Assembly (NCBI GenBank): GCA_052389415.1
Contig: JBQTHX010000034.1
Location: 1 to 64,000, forward strand
DNA from: Nitrosopumilaceae archaeon
Lineage (GTDB): Archaea > Thermoproteota > Nitrososphaeria > Nitrososphaerales > Nitrosopumilaceae
Direction: 5' to 3'
DNA: 64,000 nucleotides
The notes below the pieces were generated by a model. It saw only the letters and a program-made list of their open reading frames with translations. It did no database searches and was not told the origin of the DNA. The position numbers were made by a program, and so were the translations under genes. This document shows positions 1,245 to 43,993 of this stretch, piece after piece (the first letter of the stretch is position 1; every line of letters starts with the position of its first letter).

Positions 1245-1441
1245 TGAAAAAAGGTCAAATATTAATTCCAAAACCAGCTAGCAAATTTCAAAGAGTGCAA
1301 TGTAATGAATGCAATGAAGAAAGTATTGTGTTTTCACATGTGGCTACAAACGTCACATGCAAATCATGTGGAAACATTCTTGCTGAATCAACAGGATCTC
1401 ATGCAAAGATTAATGGCAAGATTTTAGGAAGCGCAGAGTAA
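1244..1441 (+). CDS. rps27e: 30S ribosomal protein S27e
   Basis: P-x-SKF-x-RVQCNEC...VFSH...CKSCG...TG; TAATG overlap with rpl44e. Confidence 0.96.
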   Translation: MKKGQILIPKPASKFQRVQCNECNEESIVFSHVATNVTCKSCGNILAESTGSHAKINGKILGSAE

Positions 1442-2008
1442 ATCATAATCTTCTTTTGTATTGAGATTGAATGCAATTCTTTTGTCATCTAATATTATGT
1501 ATGATTCCTCTACAGGTTTCATCTCCGTCAGTTTGGTTGGATCTACTATAGATATTCCACAGTATGAGTATTGTTTTCTGTTGTAAATCAGACTATATTC
1601 TTGTTTTAATGATAAAGAATCAAGAAATTCTTTACTAATAATCACCGTATTCCACGGATAATCAGTCTTGGTTTTCTGGATTATTTGTTTTATTATTTCT
1701 GAATCTAAGAGAGGGAGATCTCCTGATGTCACAAATACAGGTTCGTCAAAGTTGTATAAAATCTGATTAAGATCGTAAACATAACCTTTTCCTGCTGTAT
1801 CCATAGTAAACACTCCCAGGTTTATTAGAAATTCCCTAGTTCTTGGAGCATTATGACTTGTTCCAGCAACGATTTTGGAAAAACAACCAGATTCTTGTAG
1901 TGCAGACATAAGATGCTGTATGATTGGAGTTTTGTATGTTAGAAGGAGTTTTTCTGTTGATATTTGCATTCTAGTTCCCTTGCCACCACACATTACTAGA
2001 CCTATCAT
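1424..2008 (-). CDS. cobY: GTP:adenosylcobinamide-phosphate guanylyltransferase (CobY, MobA-like NTP transferase)
   Basis: MCGGKGTRM..EK, GDLP and NLNT..D motifs; last gene of the cob operon. Confidence 0.88.
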   Translation of the reverse strand: MIGLVMCGGKGTRMQISTEKLLLTYKTPIIQHLMSALQESGCFSKIVAGTSHNAPRTREFLINLGVFTMDTAGKGYVYDLNQILYNFDEPVFVTSGDLPLLDSEIIKQIIQKTKTDYPWNTVIISKEFLDSLSLKQEYSLIYNRKQYSYCGISIVDPTKLTEMKPVEESYIILDDKRIAFNLNTKEDYDLLCAS

Positions 2009-2733
2009 ATTGAGGCAAAGATCAAAAGAGAAGAGAGTCTGACAAGTTCGTTTGTTGCTCCAAAGACGTCACCTGATATTCCTCCAAAGCTTCTATTTGC
2101 CACCTTAAGAAGTGCTAGAGCCACTATCACTCCTACTATTACAACTATTACTCCTGTTATTCCTCCAATTGCTATTAAAGGAATGACAGTTATTGAGGTA
2201 GCTATGGCAAGTTTCTTTTTATCTTTCATAGATTGTGTGAATGGGGAACTCAAACCTTGCCATGCTGAAGAACCTCTATTTGCCTGTAATACCATGACGA
2301 ATTTTGCAAGAAGTTCACTTAATAGAATTGCTTGAAAAAGCACAAATCCTTTCATCATTGAAAGAGCAATTATCATACCTCCTACATACAAAACTACTGT
2401 TATTACTCCGGCCGATCCTACTGCTGGATCTCGCATAGCTTGTAATTTTTTTTCCTTGGTTCCTTTTGCCATTATGCCATCTGCAAAATCACAAAGTGCA
2501 TCGGTGTGATGAATTCCAGTAATAATTACTAATGATCCAGTTAGTAATAACCCAACAATGAAAGGATCAACAAACGCAGATAAACCAAATCCAGCTGTCC
2601 CAATTATAAGACCTATTATAGCACCTGCAATAGGAAATAGATACATATTTTTTGCAACAGCGTCCAGTTCCACATTTTTTGCAGAAGGAAGTATTGTTAG
2701 AAATGAGATTATGTAGCTTATTACTTTAAGCAT
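2005..2733 (-). CDS. cobS: Adenosylcobinamide-GDP ribazoletransferase (cobalamin synthase)
   Basis: FLTILP, TGIHHTDALCDFADG, MRDP..GS.G and GGISGDVFGA..E motifs; multi-TM. Confidence 0.95.
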   Translation of the reverse strand: MLKVISYIISFLTILPSAKNVELDAVAKNMYLFPIAGAIIGLIIGTAGFGLSAFVDPFIVGLLLTGSLVIITGIHHTDALCDFADGIMAKGTKEKKLQAMRDPAVGSAGVITVVLYVGGMIIALSMMKGFVLFQAILLSELLAKFVMVLQANRGSSAWQGLSSPFTQSMKDKKKLAIATSITVIPLIAIGGITGVIVVIVGVIVALALLKVANRSFGGISGDVFGATNELVRLSSLLIFASI

Positions 2734-2734
2734 G

Positions 2735-3721
2735 CTACCACAATCCTAGATACGAGAATATTATTATCATTGGGATCGTAATAAAAATACAAAATAAAAT
2801 TGAGGTTAATTTCATTATTGTTATAGTTGATTTGAAGTGATTTACCGTAAATTCCATTTCTCCATCTCCCAAAACATAATGGTCAACCTTTTCAAATCTT
2901 GTACCCAATGCACCTGCTAGTGTTGCCATTGGATATCCTGCATTTGGACTCTCAGTCTTTGAACTGTCTCGTAGCATTATTTCAAGAGAATGCTTCCAGT
3001 TTTTCCCAAGAATCATTACAGCTAAGACCATAACAAGGCTTGTGATTCTTGCAGGTAGATAATTGAGTACCTTATCACAGTTTGCTCCAAACCAACCAAG
3101 GTTTCTGAATTTTTCCGTTTTGTAACCTATCATAGAATCTATTGTATTTATGGTTCTGTAGACAAAGGCTCCTGGCAATCCAAAAATTGCAAAATAGAAA
3201 AGTGGTCCAGTAATCCCGTCTACGGTATTTTCACTAATGCTTTCTAAGGTAGCAGAAATAATGTGTTGCCTATCCAAATTTTTCGTTTCTCTTTTTACTA
3301 TCATCGATAGTTTTTCTCTAGCATCATCAAGATTATTTTTTGAAAGTGCATCCATAATCATTTGTGCGTGTTGCTGCATTCCCTTTATGGCGATTGTAGT
3401 CTTTAGTAGAATTCCTATAACAATGATAATTAGTAAGCTGAGAAGAAGATCATTCAATTCAAAATTGATATTTCTAGATTCTAGAGAATATAATCCAGCA
3501 CTAATAAAATAAAATATTACACCTACTACAGTTACAACGAAAATTGTGAGGATTGTTCCTGAAAGTTTATCATTTTTTTTTGAATTATTCTTATCTAGAG
3601 GAACAAGTTTTCCAACTAACATTCCTATCCAAGCAGTTGGATGAAATTTATTTTTTGGATCACCAATAGCAAGATCAATTATTAAGGCAAATATCACTGC
3701 AAAAATTGGAACAAGGATCAT
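2735..3721 (-). CDS. cbiB: Adenosylcobinamide-phosphate synthase CbiB/CobD
   Basis: GDP...HP, ESISENTVDG, YRTINTIDSMIGY and SPNAGYPMA motifs. Confidence 0.95.
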   Translation of the reverse strand: MILVPIFAVIFALIIDLAIGDPKNKFHPTAWIGMLVGKLVPLDKNNSKKNDKLSGTILTIFVVTVVGVIFYFISAGLYSLESRNINFELNDLLLSLLIIIVIGILLKTTIAIKGMQQHAQMIMDALSKNNLDDAREKLSMIVKRETKNLDRQHIISATLESISENTVDGITGPLFYFAIFGLPGAFVYRTINTIDSMIGYKTEKFRNLGWFGANCDKVLNYLPARITSLVMVLAVMILGKNWKHSLEIMLRDSSKTESPNAGYPMATLAGALGTRFEKVDHYVLGDGEMEFTVNHFKSTITIMKLTSILFCIFITIPMIIIFSYLGLW

Positions 3722-4560
3722 TTGAGTAATTCACCTATAGCTTTCATATTCAAATTATTTTTCACAAGCTGACTTAAATTTTCTATTTCTAGATCTAATG
3801 ATCTCAAGTATTTTTTATTCCATTGTACTTGTTTTGGATTTGTATGAAGAGAATCCTCTTCTGGGATATCAAATTTCATGAGGGGAATAGTGCCTAAAAT
3901 GGGTCTACCAGTCTTTTTTCTTAACTTGTTAAGGCTTGGTTTTAGTATGTCCTTATCTCCCCTAAATTTATTAATTACAAACCCTTGAACGAATTTTTGG
4001 TATTTTTTCTCGATTAATTCCATGGTTCCAACAATGCTTGCAAAAGTTCCACCCCTATCAATATCAGATACAAGAATTACTGGGGAATTTGCATATTCAG
4101 CTATTCTCATGTTTGCTATATCATATCTTTCCAAGTTAAATTCTGCAGGAGATCCAGCTCCTTCAATAATTACCAAATCATAGTTTTGTTTTAACCAGTC
4201 AAGGGATTTCTTTGCTACAGCTAGTCCTTTTGAAAGAACAAATTTTGAATAATAGTCTTTTGCGTACATTTTTTTGTAGAATTTTCCATTCACCAAAACT
4301 TTACTTCTGTAATCCCCAAGTGGTTTGAGAAGAATTGGGTTCATCCGTGGATCAATTTTTGTTTTTGCAGCAATTGCTTGTATCGCCTGAGCTCGTGAAA
4401 TTTCAAAATTATTCTCCTTGTAGGAGTAGGATGACATGTTTTGTGATTTAAAGGGAGCCACATGGTATCCAGAATTTACAAATATTCTGCATAATGCAGT
4501 AACAAGTGTAGTTTTTCCAGCGCCTGATGAGGTTCCTTGTATCATCAATGTTTTTGTCAT
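3718..4560 (-). CDS. cbiP: Cobyric acid synthase, synthetase domain only (280 aa)
   Basis: MIQGTSSGAGKT, PFKSQNMS, MNPILLKP, EGAGSPAE, DIDRGG, INKFRGD and EEDS motifs; no C-terminal glutamine amidotransferase domain. Confidence 0.92.
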   Translation of the reverse strand: MTKTLMIQGTSSGAGKTTLVTALCRIFVNSGYHVAPFKSQNMSSYSYKENNFEISRAQAIQAIAAKTKIDPRMNPILLKPLGDYRSKVLVNGKFYKKMYAKDYYSKFVLSKGLAVAKKSLDWLKQNYDLVIIEGAGSPAEFNLERYDIANMRIAEYANSPVILVSDIDRGGTFASIVGTMELIEKKYQKFVQGFVINKFRGDKDILKPSLNKLRKKTGRPILGTIPLMKFDIPEEDSLHTNPKQVQWNKKYLRSLDLEIENLSQLVKNNLNMKAIGELLK

Positions 4561-4561
4561 A

Positions 4562-5644
4562 TTATATTTTTTCCAATGTTTTTACAAGTCTCACATTTTC
4601 CCTGTGAGTACGGACGGCTATGCGTATGAATTTATTGGTTAATCCATGAAAAGTACTGCAATCCCTAACCAGCAGTTTTTTCTTGATGAGTTTTTTTTGG
4701 ACAATTTTTGAGCTTATTTTTGATTCAAGCAAAATAAAATTAGTTGAAGATGGATAGCACGAAAAATTCTTAATTTTAGATATAGAAGTAGTTAGAAAAT
4801 CAAGCTCTTTTTTTATCAATTTTCTTGTTCTGTAAAGATGAGATTTGTTTGAGAGCGCCACAATGGCGGCCTTTTGAGCCAAGGCATTTACATTCCATGG
4901 AATCTTCATTCGTTCAAGAACATTAATCATTTTCTTACTTCCTAATCCATAACCAATTCTGAGTCCTGCCAATCCAAAAGATTTTGTAAGAGAACGTAGT
5001 ATGAAGAGATTATCAAATTCTTTTAGATTGGATGAAAGGGATTCATTTGATTCTGGTACGAGTTCAATAAAACATTCATCTAAAAACACTAATGCTGATT
5101 TTTCATAAGCAGCCTCAATAATCTTTAACATGTTTTTTCTTTTTACTAATGAACCAGTAGGATTATTTGGATTGCAAAGAAAAATACAGTCATTTTTTTT
5201 GATTATTGATTGAAACTTTGGAATTGTTTCATTCAGGTTCATTGTTTTGTAATGAAGAACGTTTCCTCCTTGTAGTAACGTAGCAGCCTCATATTCTTCA
5301 AATGTAGGTATCGGTATTACAGCTCGAGTATTTTTTTTAATAAATATTTTACAAAAATTATAAATTATTTCTGTAGCACCATTTCCTACAATTATTTGAC
5401 TTTTTGTAATGCCTGTATATTTTTCCAAACTATTTCTGAGTTCTGTTGAATTCGGATCAGGATATATAGACAAAAGTCCCAAATTTTTTTTAATTATGTT
5501 TTTTACTTGCTGTGGAAAGCCCAGTGGATTTACGTTAGAGCTAAAATCTATTGTTTTACTATCTAACTTGATTCCAGTAAAATAGAGTCCACCATGAGGG
5601 ACAGCTACATGATTGGAAATGTTTTTTTCAATATTGAATTTCAC
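4562..5644 (-). CDS. cobD: L-threonine-O-3-phosphate decarboxylase (PLP class I/II)
   Basis: HGG, DFSSNVNPLG, GNGATE, CNPNNPTG and RSLTKSFGLAGLRIGY motifs; first gene of the cob operon. Confidence 0.88.
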   Translation of the reverse strand: MKFNIEKNISNHVAVPHGGLYFTGIKLDSKTIDFSSNVNPLGFPQQVKNIIKKNLGLLSIYPDPNSTELRNSLEKYTGITKSQIIVGNGATEIIYNFCKIFIKKNTRAVIPIPTFEEYEAATLLQGGNVLHYKTMNLNETIPKFQSIIKKNDCIFLCNPNNPTGSLVKRKNMLKIIEAAYEKSALVFLDECFIELVPESNESLSSNLKEFDNLFILRSLTKSFGLAGLRIGYGLGSKKMINVLERMKIPWNVNALAQKAAIVALSNKSHLYRTRKLIKKELDFLTTSISKIKNFSCYPSSTNFILLESKISSKIVQKKLIKKKLLVRDCSTFHGLTNKFIRIAVRTHRENVRLVKTLEKI

Positions 5645-24111: not shown

Positions 24112-25293
24112 TTATTCTAGACTGATAATTCCAGTTGATATCAAGTATTGAATTCCAGCAGCAAATGTCTTATCATCTATCTTGCCTTCATACCACAAGG
24201 CAGCGTTTTGTTTTATCCAGTTTGGAATTTTATCAACATTATGTTGTTTTTCTGTATGAGGAATAGATATTATTCTATGTTGTATAAGGTATTCAATTCC
24301 TTTAAGAAAATCTGTGTCATTTATAGCACCATCTACCCACCAACGAGCATTATTCTTAATCCAATTTGGAATGAGTATTTTGCTTTCTTCTAATTGTTTT
24401 ACCACAGATTGATGTGCATTCATACCGAAGATGTAAAGCCAAGCAACACCAGACTCAGTTTTGTTTATAAGATCACCATAAAGAATTATATCAGAATCTT
24501 GTGATGAGAATTTTGTATTAACAAGATTTGTTCCACGTAGACTAACACTTATGCCATTTTTGATAAATTCTGGATAATCATTTAAGCTAGCGATTTTTAT
24601 AGCAAAGAATCCACCGCTAGTTTCTTCTGCAGTAATTTCTTTTACAATCATTTTCCCACCAGCTAGTTGTATTAATTGAGCAGCAAATTCTTGTTGAAAC
24701 GGGTTTATTATTTCGTGGTTTTTATCAGAATATGAATAGTCAATTTTTCCTTCTGGTGGTTTGTTACAGGTATCATTTCGCCATTTTTCAGATGATGTAA
24801 CAGCATCAATCATCAATTGACCATGAAGAAATTCATGGTACATCATAATTTGATTTTCAATTTTTTTTATTCTCGGATCTTTTTGTAAATCTTGCATTAT
24901 ATATTCAGAATTTATCTTTAATTCGTTATCACAGTCCATCGTAATCTTACCGTCGGTTGTTGTAACAGTACACTTCCAGGTGTACGTTCCACCTGTTATT
25001 ACTCCTTCATGTGTTTGACTTTCATCGAATCTTGTCAATTTCGTTTTGATTACACTGACTACCTGATCATTTTGATCAGCAGAATTACATGGAAAAGAAA
25101 TAATCAAAGGTTTTTCAAATGATTCAAGCACCTCACTTACATCTTTTTTTTCAATTTCAAGTCTTTCAAACTCAGCGAGTAATTTCTCGAATAGTTGTTT
25201 TTCTTGAGCCGTCGGTGAAACGCTATCATCACCAAAAATCGGTATTAAATTTGTACATAATAGTAATGCAATAAGAAACCCCGGGTATCTCAA
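24112..25293 (-). CDS. Exported protein with HEXXH motif and two C-terminal thaumarchaeal IPxWIKxNAxxW repeats
   Basis: Signal peptide; MYHEFLHGQL; IPNWIKNNARWW...GIEYLI and IPNWIKQNAALW...GIQYLI. Confidence 0.8.
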   Translation of the reverse strand: MRYPGFLIALLLCTNLIPIFGDDSVSPTAQEKQLFEKLLAEFERLEIEKKDVSEVLESFEKPLIISFPCNSADQNDQVVSVIKTKLTRFDESQTHEGVITGGTYTWKCTVTTTDGKITMDCDNELKINSEYIMQDLQKDPRIKKIENQIMMYHEFLHGQLMIDAVTSSEKWRNDTCNKPPEGKIDYSYSDKNHEIINPFQQEFAAQLIQLAGGKMIVKEITAEETSGGFFAIKIASLNDYPEFIKNGISVSLRGTNLVNTKFSSQDSDIILYGDLINKTESGVAWLYIFGMNAHQSVVKQLEESKILIPNWIKNNARWWVDGAINDTDFLKGIEYLIQHRIISIPHTEKQHNVDKIPNWIKQNAALWYEGKIDDKTFAAGIQYLISTGIISLE

Positions 25294-25319: not shown

Positions 25320-26423
25320 TTAAGAGTTGGGACTGAGTCGTACTTGTTTCTTAAATTCATCCCATCCAGGCTTCGGTTTTTTGTCAACGTCAATTAATCC
25401 AGCACCACAAATGTATTCAGCAGTTCGCTTCAACACGAACTCATTTCCAAAGCTTATGTCAAAATCTGGGTTTAGACTATTAACACAGCTTTCTATGGGT
25501 CTGTCATATTGTCTGAACCACGAAAGAAACTCGAATTGAGGCTCATTTTTTCTAAAAAAATCATATGCTATTTGCATGAATTTTGTCTGGCCGTCTTTGC
25601 TACCACCAACAGATTCGGCAGTTGTCCAGCTTATTTCCAATAATGCTATCTGCTTGTCTTCCACAAGATCTAAAATTTTTTCAAGGTTTTTTCCTGCCTC
25701 TTCTGGCGTTTTGTTGACTTCATTTAATACATCTACAGGAAAATAGGTAAAAGCAACAAAATCTCCCTGATTTAGCTTACCTACAAGATCTTCTTGCTCA
25801 TGATTTAATACTCCATGAAGAGAAAATGAGTTTCCAAATTTTACATTAGGATGTTTTTCTTTAAGATAGTTATAGACTTCTATAAAAAACTCTTCGTATT
25901 TCGTAATGTCATTTTCATGTTCACGAAAATATGCATCTATTCCTCCACCTATGATCACATAGTCAATAATATCATATCTGGATAAGACGTCATCTAGAAT
26001 TTTGACAGTTTTTTGCTTTAAATCATCATCAAGTTGTGGCTCTCCCATCCAATTTGGAAACGGGCCAAACATGCGGTTGTTAATTATAGAAAAGTATAAT
26101 GTAACCTTAAGATCATTTTGTTTACTAAGACTCATTAGTGTATCAGAAATTTTCCAATCGTATTGTCCTTTTTGTGGTTCCAATGCAGACCAGAAGAGAT
26201 ACACATTACTTCTTCCAATTCCTGTAGATGCAGCATCTGCATACGCATCTTTTAGTTCTGGAATTGTTGGAGTGGGGGAAGGAGTCATTATGTATAAACC
26301 AAGTTTTTCATTCTTTTGTACTATCTCAGGTGATGTTGACAGGAATATTGTTATCGTGATAATTGCTATGATACCTGATATTGTAGCAACTCCTAGAATT
26401 TTTTTATTCAATATTTGTATCAC
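25320..26423 (-). CDS. Membrane-anchored GH-A clan TIM-barrel protein (glycoside hydrolase-like)
   Basis: N-terminal TM; WSALEP..G.YDW...D, FTYFP, LLEISW and GLID...KPKPGW motifs. Confidence 0.75.
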   Translation of the reverse strand: MIQILNKKILGVATISGIIAIITITIFLSTSPEIVQKNEKLGLYIMTPSPTPTIPELKDAYADAASTGIGRSNVYLFWSALEPQKGQYDWKISDTLMSLSKQNDLKVTLYFSIINNRMFGPFPNWMGEPQLDDDLKQKTVKILDDVLSRYDIIDYVIIGGGIDAYFREHENDITKYEEFFIEVYNYLKEKHPNVKFGNSFSLHGVLNHEQEDLVGKLNQGDFVAFTYFPVDVLNEVNKTPEEAGKNLEKILDLVEDKQIALLEISWTTAESVGGSKDGQTKFMQIAYDFFRKNEPQFEFLSWFRQYDRPIESCVNSLNPDFDISFGNEFVLKRTAEYICGAGLIDVDKKPKPGWDEFKKQVRLSPNS

Positions 26424-26460
26424 AAATGATTGATAGTAAAAAAGTTATGATTAATGTTGA

Positions 26461-29118
26461 CTATCCAGATGTACAGCCGCTGTATCCACATTCTATGCAG
26501 AGGTTACATCCTTCTGCAAAGACTAGATTATTTTTGCACGTTGGACACAACCTTTCTTCTAGTTGTTCTTGTGTGAGTTGGTTTTGTTGTATTCTTACTT
26601 CACTGTCAGGAATTTTGATTTGTAATGCTTTTTCAATCTGTGTTTTCAGATATGGATTAGTAACACCCTTTGCTATAAATTCAGTTAGATATGCACTAGG
26701 AACTACTTGGAATGTTTTTTGTACATTGTCACCAGTCATATGAAGAACTTGCTCATGTCTTGAACCATCTCTGAATACTGTAATTCCTTTTAATCCAAGT
26801 TCATGTGCTAACAAATATGATGCTTTAACATCATCTGCAGTCACATCATTAGGCATGTTGATTGTTTTGGCTATTGCGTTTCCAATCCATCTTTGCCATA
26901 CAGCTTGTGCCATCAGGTGGTCAGTCCAGTGGATGTCCATAGCTGTCACAAAAATTTTCTGTATCCATTCAGGAATTTCTGGGATTCCTTTTACTGATCC
27001 ATAATTGTTTGCAATCTTTTCCAGTATTTGATCATTGTATAATCCATGTTCTTTTAAAACAGATTCGAATATCTTGTTAGTGTAGAAAAATCTACCAACT
27101 GTAACACGTTTTTCAAATACAAGTGCAAACATGGGTTCCATTCCATTGGAACAATCAGCTATCATAGAAAGAGTTCCTGTAGGAGCTACTGTAGATGTTA
27201 ACACATTTCTTATTCCGTGTTTTTGGATTTTTTCAATTAGGGCGTCCCAATCATAATAGTGTGCACTTTTTGGTTTTTCATAATAACCTCCAATTGGAAT
27301 TTTTCCTTCAGGGAACTCTGTTTTCTCGCAAAGGGGGAATGCACCTCGTGTTTTTGCTAAAGCCACACTTTCTTCCATTGAATAATAGCTCAAAGCCTCT
27401 GCTAATTTTTCTTGGAATTCATAACCTTCTCGTGAATTATACGGGATTCGCAGTTTGAACAGAAGATCAGCAACACCCATTACACCCAGTCCTATTCTAC
27501 GGGAATCTTTTGAGGCCTTGTCGATTTCGGGTATTGGGTAATTATTTGTGTCTATTACATCATCTAAGAATCTTGTAGTCTTTCTGATTACTTCTTCATA
27601 TCGTTGCCAATCAAACTCATATTGTCCATCAGCTTTTCTTTTCACAAAGTTTGAGAGATTGATAGATCCAAGATTACATGACTCGTACGGATACAAGCTT
27701 TGTTCTCCACATGGATTAGTTGCTCGCAATGGTCCACCACGTGCTTTAGCAAATACATTATACTTGTTTATCTGATCAAAAAAGATCAGTCCAGGTTCAG
27801 CACTCTTCCAAGCTGACAGCGCTATTAGATCAAGAAGTTGATGTGCGTTTACTTCACGCACTGGACTCTTGTCACGTGGACTTCGCAGAATATATTTTCC
27901 ATCAGACGAATTTACAAGTGAGCTCCAAAAGTCTTCCCACACTCCTACACTCACATTAAAGTTTTCTAAAACTCCTGGTTTTGTTTTTGCAGTGATAAAT
28001 TTTTCAATATCAGGATGCCATGCTTCAATTATTCCCATGTTTGCACCTCTGCGTTTTCCTCCCTGTTTAACAACTTCTGTTACAGTATTGATAATATTCA
28101 TGAAAGAGACAGGCCCCGAGGCTACACCAGATGTAGATGCAACCATGTCGCCTTCTTCTCTAAGATCAGAGTAATTGATACCAACTCCTCCTCCAGATTT
28201 GAAGATCAAAGCCGCATCTGAAGATGATTTCATTATTTGTTCCATATCATCAGGCATTGCAAGAACAAAGCATGCAGATAGTTGTCCTAGTCTTCCCCCA
28301 GCATTCATCATGGTAGGAGAATTTGGTAGAAAGTCTTGAGATATCATCATATCATAGTATTCTGTGATTCTTTCCGCATAGTTATCAAATTGTTTTGCTG
28401 CAAGCATGGTGAGGAATTCCTTTATACTTACTTTCATCTGGCCTTGTTTGGCAAGATCAATGTAATGAGAGATCAGTCCTCTAAAGTGCCACTTGTTAAG
28501 ATGATATTTACCTATTTTGAATTTGTAATTAAAATCATCAAGTTTATCAAGATATTTTTTGGCATCTTCTATGTTCTGGGTTCTTCCACCATTAACTTCG
28601 AAAACAGAATTATCCTTTAGAACATCTGCAAGTCCAACTAATACTGCAACGCGTTCAAACATCTCTCCTGGACTTTCTATTATTTCACCTTTGTTGTTAC
28701 GAAACAGATATCGTGATGCTAAGACTCGCAAACAATTAATGTCAAATTTCTTTGATACATCGTCAAGAAGTTTTGCATTTAGAATTTTCATCTTTTCTTC
28801 TCGAATCTTTCTTCGTTCGTGTCTGTAAAGTATGTAGGATTTCGCGATTTCACCTAATCCTTCATCTATTAGAATGGATTCCACCATATCTTGAACGTCT
28901 TCTACGCTTGGTGGAGAAGAGGCTGAAAATCCATGTTTTAAGAGCCTCATCATAACTCCTTCAGCAAGCTTATCTGCCAAACTATGATCTGGTCTTCCAC
29001 AAGCGACTAGTGCTTTGTATATTGCATTTGAGATCTTGTCTTTCTGAAAATTTAATACTCGCCCATCTCTTTTTTTTACTTCAATAATCGAGTTTTCTAT
29101 CTGTGAAAAGTCAGTCAA
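26461..29118 (-). CDS. nrdJ: Class II (adenosylcobalamin-dependent) ribonucleotide reductase with N-terminal ATP cone
   Basis: VKKRDG ATP cone; PNSPT, LSACF, TNPCGEQ, SCNLGSINL, RRIGLG.MG, APTGT and C-terminal Cys motifs; no intein. Confidence 0.96.
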   Translation of the reverse strand: MTDFSQIENSIIEVKKRDGRVLNFQKDKISNAIYKALVACGRPDHSLADKLAEGVMMRLLKHGFSASSPPSVEDVQDMVESILIDEGLGEIAKSYILYRHERRKIREEKMKILNAKLLDDVSKKFDINCLRVLASRYLFRNNKGEIIESPGEMFERVAVLVGLADVLKDNSVFEVNGGRTQNIEDAKKYLDKLDDFNYKFKIGKYHLNKWHFRGLISHYIDLAKQGQMKVSIKEFLTMLAAKQFDNYAERITEYYDMMISQDFLPNSPTMMNAGGRLGQLSACFVLAMPDDMEQIMKSSSDAALIFKSGGGVGINYSDLREEGDMVASTSGVASGPVSFMNIINTVTEVVKQGGKRRGANMGIIEAWHPDIEKFITAKTKPGVLENFNVSVGVWEDFWSSLVNSSDGKYILRSPRDKSPVREVNAHQLLDLIALSAWKSAEPGLIFFDQINKYNVFAKARGGPLRATNPCGEQSLYPYESCNLGSINLSNFVKRKADGQYEFDWQRYEEVIRKTTRFLDDVIDTNNYPIPEIDKASKDSRRIGLGVMGVADLLFKLRIPYNSREGYEFQEKLAEALSYYSMEESVALAKTRGAFPLCEKTEFPEGKIPIGGYYEKPKSAHYYDWDALIEKIQKHGIRNVLTSTVAPTGTLSMIADCSNGMEPMFALVFEKRVTVGRFFYTNKIFESVLKEHGLYNDQILEKIANNYGSVKGIPEIPEWIQKIFVTAMDIHWTDHLMAQAVWQRWIGNAIAKTINMPNDVTADDVKASYLLAHELGLKGITVFRDGSRHEQVLHMTGDNVQKTFQVVPSAYLTEFIAKGVTNPYLKTQIEKALQIKIPDSEVRIQQNQLTQEQLEERLCPTCKNNLVFAEGCNLCIECGYSGCTSG

Positions 29119-29349
29119 ACGTCTCCCGGCAACAGTAAGAAAAGAGAGTATAATAAAGATTGAGGCGAAAAAAAATTTCCTAAAATTGATTTTTGGATCA
29201 ATTTTGTTGACATCATTTCATTTTGAATAAAAGAATAGATCTTTTCAAAATAAAAATGAAAAAAATATTATTATAAATTTCAGAAAAATATGATCGCATT
29301 TTCTAAATTTTTAGAAAGATCTATTATTAATTATGGAGAGCAAATATTA

Positions 29350-31458
29350 TCATTGCGCTTGGGCTAAAATGTATGGTGATTTACAGGTAGGACACTTGTC
29401 TGTAATTTTCTCATCTTTTAGGCCACAGTTACCACATATAGATACTTTTCTGATCGGTTTGAAAGTTCCTACAAGTTCGCTTGCTTTTTCTATTGCTTTT
29501 TTGATTCCTGCAGTATCCATTTCATTAGGGATTTTTAGTTGGATCAAAAATCCACCGTTTAACATCTTCGAAATATGATTGCACTCTATTATCTTGTCCG
29601 TCTTTTGGGTCATTCCGTCTATTTCTGAAGCAATTAACGTCATACCAGCGCTATAGGCATCTCCTTCTACAAATTGATGAATGGACATCTTACCGTATTT
29701 TTCGCCGTCTAGGGTAGAAAATCTTGTGGAAGCATCACTTTCAGTCATAGATATAGTAACGTTATCGCCCATTTCTTTTCCCTTCTTGGCTGCAACCTCA
29801 ATGGCTGTTTCTAGCACTTTAGCCATTATTTCGTTTCCGGCCTTGTTGTTTTCATAGCCAAGTATACCCAACACGGCCTCCTTCAAACCTATTAGATTAA
29901 CCACAAGAGTAACAGATCCTTTTTGCATGTACTGTGTATTACTAGCAAGAATAGGATTTAGTCCTCGTCTAGTAAGATCGGAGATGTCTTTCTTTCTAAG
30001 TGACATCGCAGCAAGCGCAGGCTTCATTAAGATTGCAAGACGCGCTCTAAAGTAGGTTTCATCTTTATTGGATTCAAATGCTAGCCTTGGCAGGTTTATT
30101 GAAAGTGACTGTAAGTTAATTGATGTGCCAGTGTTTTTTGTATCTCCACGTAACAAGCCATGATTAGAGACATGACCTTTGGAGAAAATTGTTCTACCTC
30201 CTAATGCTATAATCTCGGAAAGTATCTCAGAAAACTCGGAAAGTTTTCCTTTTTCATAATCAATTATCAATCCAATATGTGGGATTGGCGTTGATTTGAG
30301 GTATTTCTTATATCCAGCAAGCAAAGCCCCAATGATCTTAGAGTCAGAGCCAAGAGGAATCCTAAATGATGCTAGAGTTGAGTTTTGGTTATATTTTGGC
30401 GCAGCCGATGTTATTGCAAACGCATTTGCTATTTTTTCTTCAACTTCAGAAAGAATTTTTGAAAATTTTTGCAAAACTGTTACCAATCCATCTATAATTA
30501 CTTCTTGTGAGGCCTCTTTTAGGAGCAAAGCCGTAAGTAATGAAAGTGATGTCATAAGATCATCTAGAGTCTTAATCGGAGGCATCCTAGTCACGCCAAG
30601 GAATTTTCCACGCAGATCTATTCCATCTTCAAGAAGTTCTTTAATATTTACAAATATCGTATCTGGTAAGAGTGACCAGATTCCAGTGTTTGTCAAATGT
30701 ATATCTCCTGACAGATGTGAATCTGCCACATCCTTTGGCAAGGTGTTAAGGACAAGATTTTCACCAAAAACTGTCTGACCAGTCTTGAAAAGTAACCCTT
30801 CTACACCATTATGAATACCATCGACGTTTGTTATCATTTCATGAATATCATACGCAGGTAGACCCAATCTAGCTAACTTGTGCCTATATTCCTCATGGCC
30901 ATGCTCCAAAAGAACGGCATTAACCATTTCACGTATGAGCGAAGATGTAAGATAAGTCGTTTGAAATTTGTATATGCGATTTTCTACTTCTTCTGTTATT
31001 TTTTGAGCCAGTTCCAATGGAAGGCTGCCTTCACGCACAAGGGATTGTATTATCTTGTGAGAGTTGAATTCCTCTATTGCTTCATGTGACGTTCGTACAT
31101 ACATTTTTCCACTCTCAATAATAGAGCGTTCCTCGATCTGCCTTGCAAGACTTAGAACAAGTTTTCCAAGATTTGTTATAGTATATCGTCTTTCAGATTT
31201 ATTTAAAGCAACGAGAGATTGCCTTAATAGTTTTCTAAGATGATAAGCAAATTTACCACTTTCCTTTTTTGATTTAAAGCCAGCAAGCGATTTTAGTTCA
31301 GAATACGTAAGTGGTCCTTTTGAGTTTAAAATACGAAGTATGTCTATCCTGTTTGGACTTGCCATAACAGAAAAGATCATTCTTACTCGCTTTGATGCAG
31401 ATTGTAAAATTCCTCCCCGTTTTTGATCTCCAAAATCCTCACTTAGCTCCATAGGCAT
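29350..31458 (-). CDS. HTH + ATP cone + class III RNR (NrdD)-like protein lacking the glycyl-radical motif
   Basis: N-terminal ArsR-like HTH (RIDIL..L...YSEL...FAYHL.KL...YTIT..G), ATP cone (EEFNSHKI..SL..E...IRE.VN..LLE.G), H.SGDIH, SINLPRLA, C-terminal CGNCG..CPTCKS; ends without an R.xG(Y/F) loop. Confidence 0.8.
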   Translation of the reverse strand: MPMELSEDFGDQKRGGILQSASKRVRMIFSVMASPNRIDILRILNSKGPLTYSELKSLAGFKSKKESGKFAYHLRKLLRQSLVALNKSERRYTITNLGKLVLSLARQIEERSIIESGKMYVRTSHEAIEEFNSHKIIQSLVREGSLPLELAQKITEEVENRIYKFQTTYLTSSLIREMVNAVLLEHGHEEYRHKLARLGLPAYDIHEMITNVDGIHNGVEGLLFKTGQTVFGENLVLNTLPKDVADSHLSGDIHLTNTGIWSLLPDTIFVNIKELLEDGIDLRGKFLGVTRMPPIKTLDDLMTSLSLLTALLLKEASQEVIIDGLVTVLQKFSKILSEVEEKIANAFAITSAAPKYNQNSTLASFRIPLGSDSKIIGALLAGYKKYLKSTPIPHIGLIIDYEKGKLSEFSEILSEIIALGGRTIFSKGHVSNHGLLRGDTKNTGTSINLQSLSINLPRLAFESNKDETYFRARLAILMKPALAAMSLRKKDISDLTRRGLNPILASNTQYMQKGSVTLVVNLIGLKEAVLGILGYENNKAGNEIMAKVLETAIEVAAKKGKEMGDNVTISMTESDASTRFSTLDGEKYGKMSIHQFVEGDAYSAGMTLIASEIDGMTQKTDKIIECNHISKMLNGGFLIQLKIPNEMDTAGIKKAIEKASELVGTFKPIRKVSICGNCGLKDEKITDKCPTCKSPYILAQAQ

Positions 31459-31519
31459 GTCTAGATTGCATCAGTAAATAAGATTTGTGACGAAAAAGAT
31501 CATATAGTTACATTTTTAA

Positions 31520-31681
31520 TCAGTTTTTTTGTACATCTACAGAAAATTCTGCTGTAGAAAGAGTTTGCCCACAAGATGGACACTTGTTATTATATGGTCT
31601 TGTAATTTCTCGAATGGATTTTAGCATTCGCATATTTGCTATTTTTGCACCACATTTACCACAAACAACATCAACTGACAT
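31520..31681 (-). CDS. Small zinc-ribbon protein (53 aa, not in ORF track)
   Basis: Manual translation MSVDVVCGKCGAKIANMRMLKSIREITRPYNNKCPSCGQTLSTAEFSVDVQKN with two CxxC pairs; TTTATAAT-like box upstream on the minus strand. Confidence 0.8.
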   Translation of the reverse strand: MSVDVVCGKCGAKIANMRMLKSIREITRPYNNKCPSCGQTLSTAEFSVDVQKN

Positions 31682-31752
31682 TAGTTGATATTTTTTGTTT
31701 ATATTATAAAAGAACTGTTTTGGTTTTTTTTAATCAGTTTAGTAAATTTGAT

Positions 31753-32118
31753 TTACAGTTTTTCTAACAACATACCACGCTCGTCATAACCAGCAATTTT
31801 GGTTTTTGCTCCAAGAGGGAGATCAGAGGGCGAAGTAATATTTTGCATAAAGCCAGACACTTGAAGATCTGCCTGATCTAATTTTATTACAACCCAAGCA
31901 TATGGAGTGTATTTTTCATATCCTGCTGGAGGAACTGTAATTATAGTATAAGTAACAACCTTGCCCTTTCCTTCTATTAAGACATTTTCGAATCCCTTAT
32001 TTCCACAATTTTGGCAAAAATAGGTCGTTGCAAGATGCAAATAGCCACATTTTGTGCATTTCCGGGCAAGAATCTTGCCTGCTTTTGCATTATTAACGAA
32101 TTCCTCTTTTGCCGACAA
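31753..32118 (-). CDS. DUF35 Zn-ribbon/OB-fold protein (thiolase partner)
   Basis: CTKCG...CQNCG, G.V.TYT.I..PP.G.....PY motifs; TTG at 32118 lies 1 nt after the thiolase stop. Confidence 0.9.
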   Translation of the reverse strand: MSAKEEFVNNAKAGKILARKCTKCGYLHLATTYFCQNCGNKGFENVLIEGKGKVVTYTIITVPPAGYEKYTPYAWVVIKLDQADLQVSGFMQNITSPSDLPLGAKTKIAGYDERGMLLEKL

Positions 32119-32119
32119 G

Positions 32120-33274
32120 TTATACACTTTTGAAGATATGTACTGCACAGCTTGCGCCTGTTGCCCCGAAGTTGTGGGTTAGACCAATTTTTGCGTCTTT
32201 TACTGTTCTTTCGCCGGCCTTTCCAGTCAGCTGATCAAACACTTCAACGACCTGACCAATTCCAGTTGCGCCAATTGGATGTCCTTTTGATTTTAGTCCT
32301 CCAGATGGATTAATAGATATTTCACCGTTTAATTTTGTCATTCCTTGTCGCACTGCTTCAACTGCTTTTCCTTTTTCAAAAAATCCCAAGTCTTCAGTAT
32401 CAACTAGTTCAGCAATTGTAAAGCAGTCGTGTACTTCTGCAAAGTCAACATCTTTTGGTGTAATTCCTGCCATTTTGTATGCAGCCTGTGCTGCAATCTT
32501 TGTGCTTGGTATAGTGGTAATATGCTCACGTCCTTGCAGTGCAGCAGGTGATCCACCCCTGCCTGATCCAATCACTTGAATGTAATTTTTTGAATGTTCT
32601 TTTGCAAATTTTTCACTACACAAGATTACTGCACTTGCACCATCAGAGAAGGGACAACAATCATATAATTTAAGCGGACTAGCGACAACTGCAGATTTCA
32701 TAACATCATCAACCGTTATTTTTTTTCTTAAATGTGCTTTTGGATTAGCAAAACCATTTTCATGATTTTTTACTGCAACCATTGCAAGGTCTTCTTCAGT
32801 TGCTTTAAATTCTGCAAGATAAGCTCTGGCCATTGATGCAAATAATCCTGGAAATGATGCACCGGCTCCTCCTTCATAAAAAAAATCAGAACAATAAGAA
32901 AAATATGTTGTAGTCCATTCTGTTCCAGTATGAGTTACCTTTTCAACACCTGTAGCTAAAACTGCGTCATAAAATCCAGCAGCCACATTAGCATAGGCTT
33001 CTCTGAATGAAACAGAACCACTTCCACAAGCAGATTCAATTGATAATGATGGCACCTCAGAAATTCCAAGGTTGCTCATTATAACAGGGCCCAAGTGAAC
33101 TTGTTTGTCTGCGATACCAAAAACGTTTGAAATGTATCCTGCTTGAAGTTCCTTTGGTTCAATACCAGCGCTCTCAATAGCTTCGACAGATGCCTGAACG
33201 GCAATGTCTGTAATACTATCTTGTAATTTTCCATACTTCGTGCTTCCTGCACCAATAACGCAGACCTTTTCCAC
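32120..33274 (-). CDS. Acetyl-CoA acetyltransferase (SCP2-type archaeal thiolase)
   Basis: ESACGSG, DCCPFSDGA, EVHDCF, NPSGGL..KGHPIGATG and HNFG motifs. Confidence 0.93.
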   Translation of the reverse strand: MEKVCVIGAGSTKYGKLQDSITDIAVQASVEAIESAGIEPKELQAGYISNVFGIADKQVHLGPVIMSNLGISEVPSLSIESACGSGSVSFREAYANVAAGFYDAVLATGVEKVTHTGTEWTTTYFSYCSDFFYEGGAGASFPGLFASMARAYLAEFKATEEDLAMVAVKNHENGFANPKAHLRKKITVDDVMKSAVVASPLKLYDCCPFSDGASAVILCSEKFAKEHSKNYIQVIGSGRGGSPAALQGREHITTIPSTKIAAQAAYKMAGITPKDVDFAEVHDCFTIAELVDTEDLGFFEKGKAVEAVRQGMTKLNGEISINPSGGLKSKGHPIGATGIGQVVEVFDQLTGKAGERTVKDAKIGLTHNFGATGASCAVHIFKSV

Positions 33275-41221: not shown

Positions 41222-43993
41222 ATGAGAAAAATCTTATTTTTTATTTCTATAATTATTGTTTTTACTAATCTTGGTTTAGCATACGCTCATCCAGAAATAA
41301 GGGTGAGTGAACCTGCAGAATTTTCAAATATTTCTGTGGGAACTACCCAAGTTATCATTCGTTATTCAGAGACAGTAGAGATTGATTATAGCGTTATCAG
41401 GGTTCTGGATAATGCTGGAAATCAAGTTGACAATAGCGATACAAAATATTTTGATAACGAACAGTCACTTATCGTTACTACAAAACCATTGGACGATGGT
41501 GTGTATACAGTAACAAGTAAAGTACTTTCTAGGGTGGATGGACATGTAGTAAATGATGCCATCGTTTTTTCTGTAGGTAATGCAGCAATACCACCTGATT
41601 TTCAAGTGAAGAAAATACAAGGACCATCAATATATCTGCCAGAAGCAGCAGCACGATTTCCAGGGTTAGTCGGACAGGTAGTTGTGTTGGGCTCTGTTCT
41701 TTATTCATTGCTGATTTGGAAATCCCTTAAAACAAAGAAAACTATGAGAGAAAACTCTGATGTGTTGGAGAAAACTCATTCGCATTTATTCTTAAAATTA
41801 ACTGGTATTGGTTTGTTGCTGGTTTTAGCATCTAATATTCTGATGTTGGCTGTTCAAGCCATAAATCTGCAAACTACAGCTATTGAGGTAATAAAAACAG
41901 GATTTGGAACAACTTGGCTTGCACGAATGATATTGACAATCATTTTACTTGCACTGTGGTTCTGGTCAGAAAGAAGTTCATCTATTGGTAACATTCGACA
42001 ATTTCTAATTCTAGGATTCTCACTTGCATTGATTTTTACTACCACTATGTTTGGTCATGGGGCAGCACTCATGAATGAACCCTCAATAGTATTGGATTTT
42101 GTCCACAACCTTCTAGCCTCCGTATGGATTGGTGGAATAATTTATTCTGTCTTTGTACTGATTCCTTCATTTTCTAAATTAGGATCTGACAAGAAAGAAC
42201 AATTTTCTCTTTTAATCTTACCCAAAATTTCTAGTGTTGTAATAATTTCGGTGGGAATTCTGATTATCACAGGTCCCACACTACTTTGGTTTTTGGAAAG
42301 TAATATCGAATTATTATATGATTCAACGTATGGAAAATTAATTCTTATAAAAATCGCACTTGGAAGTAAAATGATCGCAATAGGTGCCTATAATCAATTT
42401 AGAATTCAAAAACCAGCACTGAAAACTATGGAGTTTGGCAGAATATTTGTTTACGATAAATTTAGAAGGTCATTAAAAATAGAATCAATCGTCGGGATAG
42501 TACTTCTTGGTGTTGTGGCTATGTTAGTAAATGGCTCCCTTCCACAGTATGAATTACAAGAAACACAAGCTGAGGGCATATTAGAGTACAAAACAATACA
42601 GTTTTCAAATGCGGCTAAATTCGATATTTCCATAAATCCTCTCTCAACTGGTACAAATACCGTTACCACATCTATCAATTCTCTAGATGGAGAACCATTA
42701 AACGACATATCTGAAGTAATATTGAAGGTTTCAAATCCTCAGAAAGATATTTCTCCAATTGATATTAGGCTAGTTCCAACCAATTCTGCTGATTCTAACT
42801 CTCTTACAAAATTTGTAGGAAATGCAACAATTGGTTTTTCAGGAACGTGGCATATAGAAATTGTAGCTCTAAGGACACAGAATGCAAATGAAGCTATATC
42901 TTTTGATGTTCTGATAAAACCTAGACTTTCTGAATTACAGACAAACATCATAGAGTATAGTTTTCCAGACAAAATTGTTGCACCACTCTTTCCTGTTTTT
43001 GATGGTAAAAATACAATATGGATTAGTGACACCAACAAACCACGAATATGGAAATTTACTATAGATGATAAACGATTCAGGCCGTATGAATTTGATGGGC
43101 AAATTTCTGTCACATTGAATATAGACAACGATGGTAAGATATGGTATACTGATACACCAAACTCAAAGATAGGATTCTTTGATCCATCCACAGAAATATT
43201 CGAAAACATTGATCTTCCAATAAAATCTGTCCCAGTATTTATGGAAACTGATTTTAGTAATAATATTTGGGTTGCGTTAGCAGACAAAAATATACTACTA
43301 AAGTATGAACAGGAAAAGCAGACATTTACCGAACATAAAATTTCAGCTGCACCTCTTTCTGGACCAACTGCACTTATTTTAGACAAATTTGGAAATATCT
43401 GGTTTGCAGAAGCACAAGCTGGAAAAATTGGTGTGATCAACCCAGAGACTGGCACGTCTAAAGAATTTGTTCCTGAAAGCCCACTAGAAGAACCAACTGC
43501 TCTATTCTTTGATAATGATGGAAACCTATGGGTAGCTGAGCATACAGCACCCGCCATTACCAAGTTCGATACTACTCTTGAGACCTTCGAGCAGATTCCC
43601 GTATTGGATGCGAATGCCCTCCCTTTTGGAATGGCTTCAGACAAATTTGGCAATATTTGGTTCGGTCAACATACTATTGACAAACTAGGTGCTTACGATC
43701 CTTTTAATGACAATTTCAAAGAGATTCCGATTCCCACTCAACAATCATTCACTCAATTTATCACATCTGACAACGATGGAAATATCTGGTTTGCAGAACA
43801 ACGCGGTCAAAAGCTTGGAATGGTGTCCATAACAGAAATTCCAAGACAACCAATAATTTCGCAAGATGAAACATTTGAAATCAGATATGCAGATCTTGTA
43901 TCACCCTTCATAGCAACAGGCATTATTGCAACATCATTATTCTTTGTAAAGAGCATTAAGGACAAAAGAAAATTAGACATTCTGGTAGACTGA
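41222..43993 (+). CDS. CopC-CopD fusion with Ig-like domain and Vgb-type beta-propeller, C-terminal TM
   Basis: AYA-HP...SEP, VLSRVDGH (CopC); GH and H.L.ASVWIGG...YG..I..K (CopD); repeated D..GNIWF.E propeller blades. Confidence 0.9.
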   Translation: MRKILFFISIIIVFTNLGLAYAHPEIRVSEPAEFSNISVGTTQVIIRYSETVEIDYSVIRVLDNAGNQVDNSDTKYFDNEQSLIVTTKPLDDGVYTVTSKVLSRVDGHVVNDAIVFSVGNAAIPPDFQVKKIQGPSIYLPEAAARFPGLVGQVVVLGSVLYSLLIWKSLKTKKTMRENSDVLEKTHSHLFLKLTGIGLLLVLASNILMLAVQAINLQTTAIEVIKTGFGTTWLARMILTIILLALWFWSERSSSIGNIRQFLILGFSLALIFTTTMFGHGAALMNEPSIVLDFVHNLLASVWIGGIIYSVFVLIPSFSKLGSDKKEQFSLLILPKISSVVIISVGILIITGPTLLWFLESNIELLYDSTYGKLILIKIALGSKMIAIGAYNQFRIQKPALKTMEFGRIFVYDKFRRSLKIESIVGIVLLGVVAMLVNGSLPQYELQETQAEGILEYKTIQFSNAAKFDISINPLSTGTNTVTTSINSLDGEPLNDISEVILKVSNPQKDISPIDIRLVPTNSADSNSLTKFVGNATIGFSGTWHIEIVALRTQNANEAISFDVLIKPRLSELQTNIIEYSFPDKIVAPLFPVFDGKNTIWISDTNKPRIWKFTIDDKRFRPYEFDGQISVTLNIDNDGKIWYTDTPNSKIGFFDPSTEIFENIDLPIKSVPVFMETDFSNNIWVALADKNILLKYEQEKQTFTEHKISAAPLSGPTALILDKFGNIWFAEAQAGKIGVINPETGTSKEFVPESPLEEPTALFFDNDGNLWVAEHTAPAITKFDTTLETFEQIPVLDANALPFGMASDKFGNIWFGQHTIDKLGAYDPFNDNFKEIPIPTQQSFTQFITSDNDGNIWFAEQRGQKLGMVSITEIPRQPIISQDETFEIRYADLVSPFIATGIIATSLFFVKSIKDKRKLDILVD

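Follow-up and report, generated by a model that had tools for sequence, protein, structure and literature searches.

We analysed a 64,000-nucleotide (nt) stretch of the genome of a Nitrosopumilaceae archaeon (contig JBQTHX010000034.1 of assembly GCA_052389415.1, positions 1 to 64,000; hereafter the window), in which the gene directly upstream of nrdJ, the gene of a class II ribonucleotide reductase (RNR), encodes a protein of 702 amino acids (aa) that joins an ArsR-type winged helix-turn-helix (wHTH) head and an ATP-cone to a body of the class III RNR (NrdD) type. Our analyses leave hardly any doubt that this protein is a catalytically dead descendant of NrdD, a pseudo-enzyme status which is as firm as sequence and fold analysis permit, and they favour, with a probability of roughly 0.55, a pseudo-enzyme transcription regulator of nrdJ, in which a dead NrdD is combined with a wHTH and a divergent cone. 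Judged from its sequence and genomic setting, the protein probably is a transcription factor acting at nrdJ. The original prediction made for this DNA thereby concerned a phenomenon that is real and more general than supposed, and its claim of a retired reductase turned regulator is well motivated but only half demonstrated. The question bears on the control of RNR transcription in archaea and on a family whose carriers include some of the planet's most abundant archaea. If the proposal is true, this is a clean case in which the enzyme of one RNR class has been withdrawn from catalysis and put to use in controlling another class; natural intermediates survive, and the promoters, with their inverted repeat and phased boxes, lend themselves to direct testing.

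The succession of an ArsR-like wHTH, an ATP-cone and an NrdD-like body had been proposed beforehand and is borne out alike by Pfam, by profile comparison and by structure modelling. Pfam places DUF7347 (41.3 bits against a cutoff of 27.6) and HTH_20 (32.9 bits, cutoff 27) on residues 28-102, the ATP-cone on residues 119-191 (35.4 bits, cutoff 25.8) and NRDD on residues 417-694 (92.4 bits), the last match stopping at position 529 of the 562 positions of the profile. The motifs expected for such a body (H.SGDIH, SINLPRLA and a C-terminal Zn ribbon) are all present, as HLSGDIH at residues 248-254, SINLPRLA at residues 453-460 and the ribbon cysteines 675, 678, 689 and 692. A phmmer search of the Protein Data Bank (PDB) with the single sequence returned no match, and a 50-sequence profile was required; it was derived from a family alignment (A1), which also served for hhalign and for an AlphaFold2 model. 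This profile retrieved five class III RNR (NrdD) sequences from the PDB (E 9e-40 to 1e-32) and, with its N-terminus, gave weak matches to ArsR, HlyU and NolR structures, while hhalign aligned A1 with E. coli NrdD at a probability of 99.8% (E 7.8e-28) over 511 columns, covering residues 224-702. The AlphaFold2 model (predicted local distance difference test, pLDDT, 89; predicted template modelling score, pTM, 0.80) found class III RNRs at all of ranks 1-35 when compared with the PDB by Foldseek, with E values down to 6e-20 and template modelling scores, by target, of 0.53-0.67. Since hhalign, the PDB profile matches, the model and Foldseek agree, the NrdD fold is assigned, on the model, to the region from about residue 205 to the C-terminus, behind the ArsR-like head and the cone. 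In the modelled head, helices a1-a2-a3-aR are followed by a wing hairpin and a long a5 helix (residues 96-116), and the cone consists of four helices. Both this topology and the HTH_20 match of the N-terminal 100 residues recall the ArsR/SmtB proteins; those, however, are metal sensors of about 100-120 aa that detect the metal at the dimer, whereas here the domain heads a 700-aa protein.

With NrdD the protein shares the fold and the order of motifs, AH..G.IH followed by NLPR and the C-terminal Zn ribbon, and many NrdDs likewise carry an N-terminal ATP-cone (PMC11226230). It departs from NrdD in having neither glycyl-radical domain nor thiyl cysteine nor second cysteine, in its degenerate HxHD motif, in the additional wHTH and in its occurrence in aerobes. 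In alignments to the NrdDs of E. coli, T4 and other sources, the chain ends 10 residues past the last Zn-ribbon cysteine and before the RVCGY radical loop, and the Pfam domain Gly_radical was found neither in the 702-aa protein nor in any member of A1 (0/50), of which 50/50 contain NRDD, 50/50 DUF7347 and 48/50 the ATP-cone. The position of E. coli Cys384, the thiyl cysteine of the GCR finger loop, is occupied by Leu (HGLLR), and the strand that in the E. coli enzyme bears C175, the second active-site cysteine (PMFNCMLID), reads PDTIFVN and has no Cys. The HxHD motif, reported to hold the substrate triphosphate in NrdD (PMC11226230), is H254-L-T-N. Consistently, the NCBIfam equivalog profile for NrdD (TIGR02487) scores 84.3 bits, far below its cutoff of 326.35.

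These losses extend to the whole family. We aligned 445 family sequences of at least 600 aa with E. coli NrdD (506 had been collected, of which 61 were shorter or contained X and were excluded), and none of them held the full set of C175, C384 and G681 or a strict RVCGY-like pattern. A Cys in the C175 strand occurs in 0/445; in the C384 column it occurs in 38/445, all of them in a long subfamily assigned to Bathyarchaeia by source names; and the G681 column is a gap in 283/445 and Gly in 4/445. The first His of HxHD is kept in 401 sequences, the second is mostly T, S or N, and the Asp has become Asn in 288. The C-terminal Cys4 ribbon has been retained, C675, C678 and C689 being invariant and C692 present in at least 90% of A1. 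Three members (P0222, P0189 and P0310), all without the finger-loop Cys, display a vestigial ..GY.. tail at the expected place after the last CxxC. A loose R..G[YFW] pattern, found within the last 120 residues of 9 of 150 representatives, was discarded, its matches lying in the Zn ribbon or at unrelated positions save for those three tails.

The loss of the glycyl-radical loop and of the finger-loop Cys was part of the original prediction and holds across the family; also as predicted, no radical S-adenosylmethionine (SAM) activase gene, nrdG, was found in the vicinity. A tblastn search with E. coli NrdG over the window and 80 related loci (1.38 Mb in all, the loci being covered within 10 kb) gave no NrdG-like match, the best E value being 0.41, and radical-SAM Pfam families were absent from the window open reading frames (ORFs) scanned, i.e. 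63 of the 86 of at least 100 aa, the regulator gene and nrdJ, and four more; the other 17 ORFs of this size are shorter and nested in longer ORFs of the opposite strand. A working class III reductase that receives its radical in trans, or through an unrecognised activase, is hardly credible on these grounds. It could appeal to the preserved NrdD fold and to the conservation of NLPR with an invariant Asn455, of GL.E, R...LD, Tyr602 and GG, and of the Zn ribbon, but it would have to operate with the radical domain gone, with non-Cys residues at both Cys positions, with a degenerate HxHD, with an equivalog score of 84 bits against 326 and with no NrdG-like gene in the window or the related loci. 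Moreover, the hosts oxidise ammonia aerobically. Oxygen destroys the glycyl radical (PMC2795772).

The gene is not decaying, since all domains of the family are under purifying selection. Ratios of non-synonymous to synonymous substitution rates (dN/dS), taken from 30 random pairs out of 678 pairs 84-96% identical among 75 Nitrosopumilaceae genes, are 0.010 in the wHTH, 0.022 in the cone, 0.090 in the barrel and about 0.04-0.08 in the Zn ribbon, values that are approximate because dS is near 1. Mean column identity in A1 is highest in the cone (0.67), with 0.57 in the wHTH and 0.38 in the barrel, and invariant residues cluster in the recognition helix (GKFAYHL), in the cone (V121, F131, I136, L140, E143, R176 and L183) and in the barrel (G251, N455 and Y602), besides the Zn-ribbon cysteines. 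The recognition-helix motif [ED][SA]G[KR]F[AVG]YHL[RK] is conserved enough to act as a scan pattern, and a species-representative genome collection scanned with it encodes at least 597 relatives. A search of 5.8 billion proteins yielded 4167 matches among 8000 candidates scored, the best 120 of which share the same four Pfam domains, and a search of representative clusters yielded 1149 at E<=0.001 and 181 at E<=1e-30. The closest locus among the matches listed for the genome collection comes from a Nitrosotalea-labelled metagenome-assembled genome, with 95% aa identity for the 702-aa protein.

Source names assign a group at 40-45% identity to Nitrososphaerales and a longer form, of 740-800 aa, to Bathyarchaeia. 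Past the Zn ribbon, the long form carries a remnant of the radical domain (..SR.SAKYLP..W....R..Y) in which Gly has been replaced, mostly by Lys or Arg, and in a subset of it the finger-loop Cys is still present (TGCRF); on their sequences, the Bathyarchaeial forms resemble successive stages of a transition between enzyme and non-enzyme. Clusters of the ESM Atlas, to be taken as leads only, point to Promethearchaeota with the same domain set (score 0.93) and to Nanobdellota with another HTH (score 0.88).

As anticipated in the original prediction, most of the named proteins are annotated as anaerobic reductases: 25 of the 29 named close homologues are labelled (anaerobic) ribonucleoside-triphosphate reductase, and the remaining 4 ArsR/HTH regulators. 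Labels of an oxygen-sensitive enzyme would mislead metabolic reconstructions of aerobic ammonia oxidisers. The Pfam name, a domain of unknown function, together with the split naming at NCBI, suggests that curators saw the family and gave it no role. A full-text literature search, outside of which lay supplements, subscription journals and RNRdb, uncovered no account of such an architecture, nor of any archaeal regulator derived from an RNR; term searches found no relevant mention of such a family in an RNR phylogeny paper (PMC9531940) and none of the terms in a paper on ancestral genomes of ammonia-oxidising archaea (PMC7554672).

The presumed target of regulation lies immediately downstream. 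The two genes form a co-oriented pair on the minus strand, 231 nt apart, and the 885-aa product of the second is an intact class II enzyme, as had been stated, which scores 736.6 bits with NCBIfam NrdJ_Z (TIGR02504; cutoff 399.95), 498 with the Pfam barrel and 69.1 with the ATP-cone, and in which the active-site motif NPCGEQ with Cys470 is present. Gene order was surveyed in the 80 related loci, i.e. the best 80 of the at least 597 relatives, all Nitrosopumilaceae-type records with 68-95% identity. In 77/80 the next gene, 195-608 nt downstream and co-oriented, is nrdJ, and the contigs of the other 3 end within 389 nt, so that the order is kept in 77/77 assessable loci. In four Nitrosotenuis-type loci (L034, L035, L037 and L040), the match to nrdJ is interrupted right at the catalytic Cys of NPCGEQ and continues, without a change of strand, 423 or 1086 nt further on, as would be expected of an intein insertion at that residue; the window nrdJ has no insert at Cys470.

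On the other side, a 53-aa ORF encoding a CxxC...CxxC zinc ribbon stands directly upstream on the same strand in 79/79 loci reaching that far. Its length is constant in 64 distinct copies, an alignment of 28 sequences gives a mean column identity of 83%, and no Pfam or NCBIfam family matches it above cutoff. It has a TATA-like element of its own. A perfect palindrome with 7-nt arms over the start of this ORF (31670-31689) was rejected as an element, one arm being coding and the other unconserved in other loci.

The coordinates of these genes, of the protein domains and of the DNA elements described below are given in Table 1.

Table 1. Coordinates, within the window, of the regulator gene, its encoded domains, its neighbours and the conserved elements of the two promoter regions
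Feature	Position	Strand	Remarks
Gene of the wHTH/ATP-cone/dead-NrdD protein	29350..31458	-	702 aa, or perhaps 700 aa if Met3 (31452) is the start
ArsR-type winged HTH	31153..31377	-	residues 28-102; recognition helix ESGKFAYHLRKL with invariant Y72 and H73
Divergent ATP-cone	30859..31104	-	residues 119-200; VRTS replaces canonical V-x-K-R
NrdD-like alpha/beta-barrel body	29449..30858	-	residues 201-670; catalytic Cys gone, HxHD degenerate
C-terminal Cys4 zinc ribbon	29353..29448	-	residues 671-702; protein ends here, no glycyl-radical domain
nrdJ, intact adenosylcobalamin-dependent class II RNR	26461..29118	-	own canonical ATP-cone; presumed regulation target
TATA-like element of nrdJ (CTTTATTATAC)	29148..29158	-	conserved columns in 77 spacers; putative function; GGGAGA next at 29122-29127
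Inverted repeat GTCAA-CAAAA-TTGAT (GTCAACAAAATTGAT), candidate operator	29197..29211	-	about 50 nt ahead of the TATA element of nrdJ
Four GATC boxes (29196, 29238, 29292, 29318)	29196..29321		regulator-nrdJ intergenic region
TATA-like element of the regulator gene (TCTTATTTAC)	31474..31483	-	16-25 nt before the ATG; putative promoter element by position
GATC box	31498..31501		upstream of the TATA element of the regulator gene
53-aa CxxC...CxxC zinc-ribbon ORF	31520..31681	-	adjoins the regulator gene upstream; possible partner or co-regulated gene

The intergenic regions on both sides of the regulator gene contain conserved DNA elements. Rfam, at E<=1 over positions 26000-32500, returned two chance-level matches only and no riboswitch or known RNA in either region. 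When the 77 regulator-nrdJ spacers were aligned and inspected, a TATA-like element, a G-rich block before the start, an inverted repeat and, further upstream, GATC boxes were recognised. In Nitrosopumilus the repeat has the form GTGTTAA-N5-TTGACAC; relaxed to GT[CTA]AA-N5-TTGA, it occurs in 65/77 spacers, of which 63 carry it at a fixed distance, 83-99 nt ahead of the nrdJ start, and the other 12 spacers hold degenerate copies at the same place. Its density reaches 3.41 per kb in the spacers versus 0.12 per kb over 1.3 Mb of loci (both strands). Runs of T (TATTTTTTTCATTTTTATTTTG) at 29245-29270 on the minus strand, about 80 nt past the regulator stop codon, form a possible archaeal oligo-T terminator which, if real, would make nrdJ a separate transcription unit.

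GATC boxes amount to 12.4 per kb in the 77 spacers versus 2.9 per kb expected from composition, and to 24.2 per kb (233 sites in 9,624 nt) between the 53-aa ORF and the regulator gene, against a background of 4.2 per kb in whole loci and 7.2 per kb in all 436 intergenic segments. The 20 GATC-richest of these 436 segments all abut the regulator gene, and other 4-nt palindromes are not enriched. Upstream of the regulator gene, the distances from one box to the next show maxima at 10-11, 19-21 and 28 nt; in the spacer the maxima are at 18-21 and 40 nt. After de-duplication by shared 8-mers, which leaves 41/79 upstream regions and 31/77 spacers, the periodicity of 10-10.5 nt exceeds all 1000 positional shuffles in both sets, a result that is not a clean probability because the loci are still related.

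Upstream of the regulator gene, the motif [TC][CT]TTA[AT]TTA was found in 79/80 regions and the k-mer TCTTATTTA in 48/80. Relative to this TATA-like element the boxes follow a lattice at -16/-20, -26/27, -36/37, -47, -57, -68, -77, -97, -107, -118 and +12, a box lying 8-32 nt upstream of it in 44/79 regions and 7-30 nt downstream in 17/79. In some Nitrosopumilus-type loci the region has grown to 390-600 nt, with 11-16 copies of a AAAWTGATCYAAA-like box (L075, 6306-6770; L079, 9480-10000; L063, 9404-10000; L070, 8019-8409); the window contains only one or two, and copy number differs widely between close relatives. As to the gene start, the ORF indeed has the predicted length of 702 aa and begins MPMELS, but a database protein 100% identical to its product is of 700 aa, so that translation may begin at the second Met (Met3, 31452); a leaderless transcript with this start is perhaps conceivable.

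Could such arrays mark a general DNA-associated protein, with a role in chromatin, replication or repair, that stands beside nrdJ by chance in one archaeal family? Up to 16 phased GATC boxes do appear more iteron-like or architectural than a simple operator, and the synteny is known from Nitrosopumilaceae loci. We nevertheless consider this very improbable, as the enrichment is specific to the two flanks of the regulator gene, no similar repeat density occurs elsewhere in the window or in the 1.3 Mb of loci, and RNR ancestry and RNR adjacency together point to deoxynucleoside triphosphate (dNTP) metabolism.

We return to a regulator of nrdJ and of its own gene, which is proposed because the ArsR-type head is highly constrained, the gene order is strict, the flanking promoters bear conserved elements and there is a parallel in the bacterial repressor NrdR. 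Most likely, the protein would bind DNA as a dimer or a larger assembly, its subunits joined through the NrdD-like body and the long helix behind the wing. One candidate site is the inverted repeat GTCAA-N5-TTGA, about 50 nt ahead of the TATA element of nrdJ; the others are the helically phased GATC boxes around its own promoter and that of nrdJ. A small-molecule signal, received at the cone, at residual nucleotide sites or at both, would alter DNA affinity or oligomeric state, and the outcome would be a transcription of nrdJ and of the regulator gene tied to the demand for DNA precursors. The boxes flanking the TATA element of the regulator gene itself suggest auto-repression; the position of the repeat, ahead of the nrdJ TATA element, would suit activation just as well.

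NrdR too joins an ATP-cone to a DNA-binding domain and is encoded beside or upstream of RNR genes. It binds tandem boxes whose helical phase matters (PMC12051234), and in many cases its gene is under its own control (PMC9110341). Phased boxes in repeated copies, as putative binding sites, likewise stand upstream of the RNR gene and of the gene of the regulator in the present case. The N-terminus of the 702-aa protein is a wHTH instead of the N-terminal Zn ribbon of NrdR, the sole Zn ribbon being C-terminal and of the NrdD type; a dead NrdD barrel of 470 residues plus this ribbon stand behind the cone, outside of which there is no homology; the cone is without the canonical Lys-Arg; and the box sequences differ. 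The description as an archaeal NrdR analogue can consequently be kept as a fair analogy of function, but not as family membership, the DNA-binding domain being a wHTH and not a Zn ribbon. NrdR itself is described as rare in archaea (PMC9110341).

A broader parallel can be drawn at the level of mechanism, in that an enzyme fold is coupled to a DNA-binding domain and a metabolite site (here a putative one) controls transcription in the same pathway. Enzyme-derived transcription factors of this kind include BirA, PutA and NadR. Those proteins keep catalysis, whereas the 702-aa protein has lost it entirely, and here the parent is a radical enzyme, of an RNR class other than that of the adjacent gene.

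The nature of the signal depends on the cone. When the family was aligned by hhalign with the cone of the NrdJ encoded in the window, VRTS fell on VKKR, T123-S124 thus occupying the Lys-Arg place of canonical cones, with an Arg shifted by one place. The equivalent Lys7 and Arg8 of PcNrdD are among the basic side chains that coordinate, or lie close to, the dATP triphosphates (PMC11226230). Among the 445 sequences V121 is retained in 444, R122 in 442, T123 in 419 and S124 in 415, and VRTS, being almost invariant, represents a selected state rather than decay. On sequence features, the chances that the ligand would be an adenine or deoxy-nucleotide appear about even. The original proposal of a retired RNR reused as a (d)NTP-sensing transcription factor is accordingly upheld for the dead scaffold, its selection and its synteny, and weakened as regards sensing, by T123-S124 and by H-L-T-N.

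A transcription factor that reads another signal, such as a metal or redox state (by way of the ArsR-like head or the Zn ribbon) or a metabolite related to cobalamin, would account for the almost invariant Thr-Ser in place of Lys-Arg and for the loss of HxHD, whereby the classical nucleotide contacts are altered and yet the altered residues are strongly conserved; it would also suit a B12-dependent nrdJ with cobalamin biosynthesis genes in the same window. This alternative is unlikely given that Arg122 and the basic residues R192 and R197 of the last cone helix are kept (in at least 90%), that the cone is the most conserved domain, that the NCBIfam metalloregulator HTH (NF033788, HTH_metalloreg) reaches only 23.4 bits against a cutoff of 55, and that the ATP-cones characterised in the papers cited here all bind adenine nucleotides.

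A different possibility, to which we give a small chance, is that the protein acts on other proteins, as a pseudo-subunit modulating NrdJ or another enzyme, with an HTH that only tethers it or serves auto-regulation. The strict adjacency to nrdJ would be expected, the dN/dS of 0.09 in the NrdD-like body implies a role beyond that of a spacer, and both proteins bear ATP-cones, which mediate oligomer contacts in RNRs (PMC11226230). It counts against such a function, however, that the wHTH is the most constrained part by dN/dS, that the recognition helix is nearly invariant across phyla, and that each of the two genes seems to have a promoter of its own, conserved elements lying in the region between the genes. 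Furthermore, we know of no pairing between class II and class III RNR subunits.

Several points weigh against the regulator of nrdJ that we prefer. DNA binding, the element bound, the ligand and the choice between repression and activation are all inferred from sequence. The loci all belong to Nitrosopumilaceae and are phylogenetically related, so their counts are not independent. Within the window the inverted repeat is at chance level (1 occurrence versus 0.58 expected), and so its weight rests wholly on conservation among related loci; its relaxed form, with 6 occurrences versus 4.26 expected and all other matches inside genes, is not enriched either and gives no evidence there of a wider regulon. 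The GATC boxes and the inverted repeat could belong to another factor. The 53-aa Zn-ribbon protein might be the real DNA reader or a partner, and because NrdR binds DNA via a Zn ribbon, a free-standing one beside a cone-bearing regulator is suggestive. A cone in which Thr-Ser has replaced the triphosphate-holding Lys-Arg may have no ligand at all or a different one, and the state of the substrate-triphosphate motif, H-L-T-N here and with T, S or N mostly replacing its second His in the family, weakens the case for (d)NTP sensing.

A more ambitious form of the same proposal, speculative and with a clearly lesser chance of being right, would make the protein an archaeal master regulator of DNA-precursor synthesis in Nitrososphaerota and Bathyarchaeia, possibly also in Asgard and DPANN archaea. 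It would read nucleotide pools with allosteric equipment inherited from the ancestral enzyme, namely the remodelled cone and an effector site at the dimer interface, and would switch nrdJ and its own gene by cooperative assembly on the phased GATC boxes; the Bathyarchaeial forms, with their vestigial tail and surviving finger-loop Cys, would be intermediates on the way from enzyme to regulator.

The remainder of the window, whose G+C content is about 35%, contains genes for cobalamin biosynthesis, riboflavin synthesis, subunits of an A-type ATPase, an ammonium transporter and copper proteins, a gene set in keeping with a member of the Nitrosopumilaceae. A run of cobalamin-salvage/lower-ligand genes at 1424-5644 (minus strand), 20 kb from the B12-dependent nrdJ, encodes a MobA-like NTP transferase, CobS, CobD/CbiB, a CobQ/CbiA-type ATPase and a class I/II aminotransferase. 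Two ORFs just 3' of nrdJ, 24112-25293 and 25320-26423 (both minus strand), match no Pfam family at E<=1e-5, the second having only weak glycosyl-hydrolase-like matches (E 2e-4 and worse), and both begin with N-terminal hydrophobic stretches that look signal- or anchor-like by eye. At 41222-43993 (plus strand), a protein of 923 aa unites CopC and CopD copper-resistance domains with a beta-propeller of the Vgb-lyase/SGL type, an unusual fusion that adjoins a plastocyanin-like protein.

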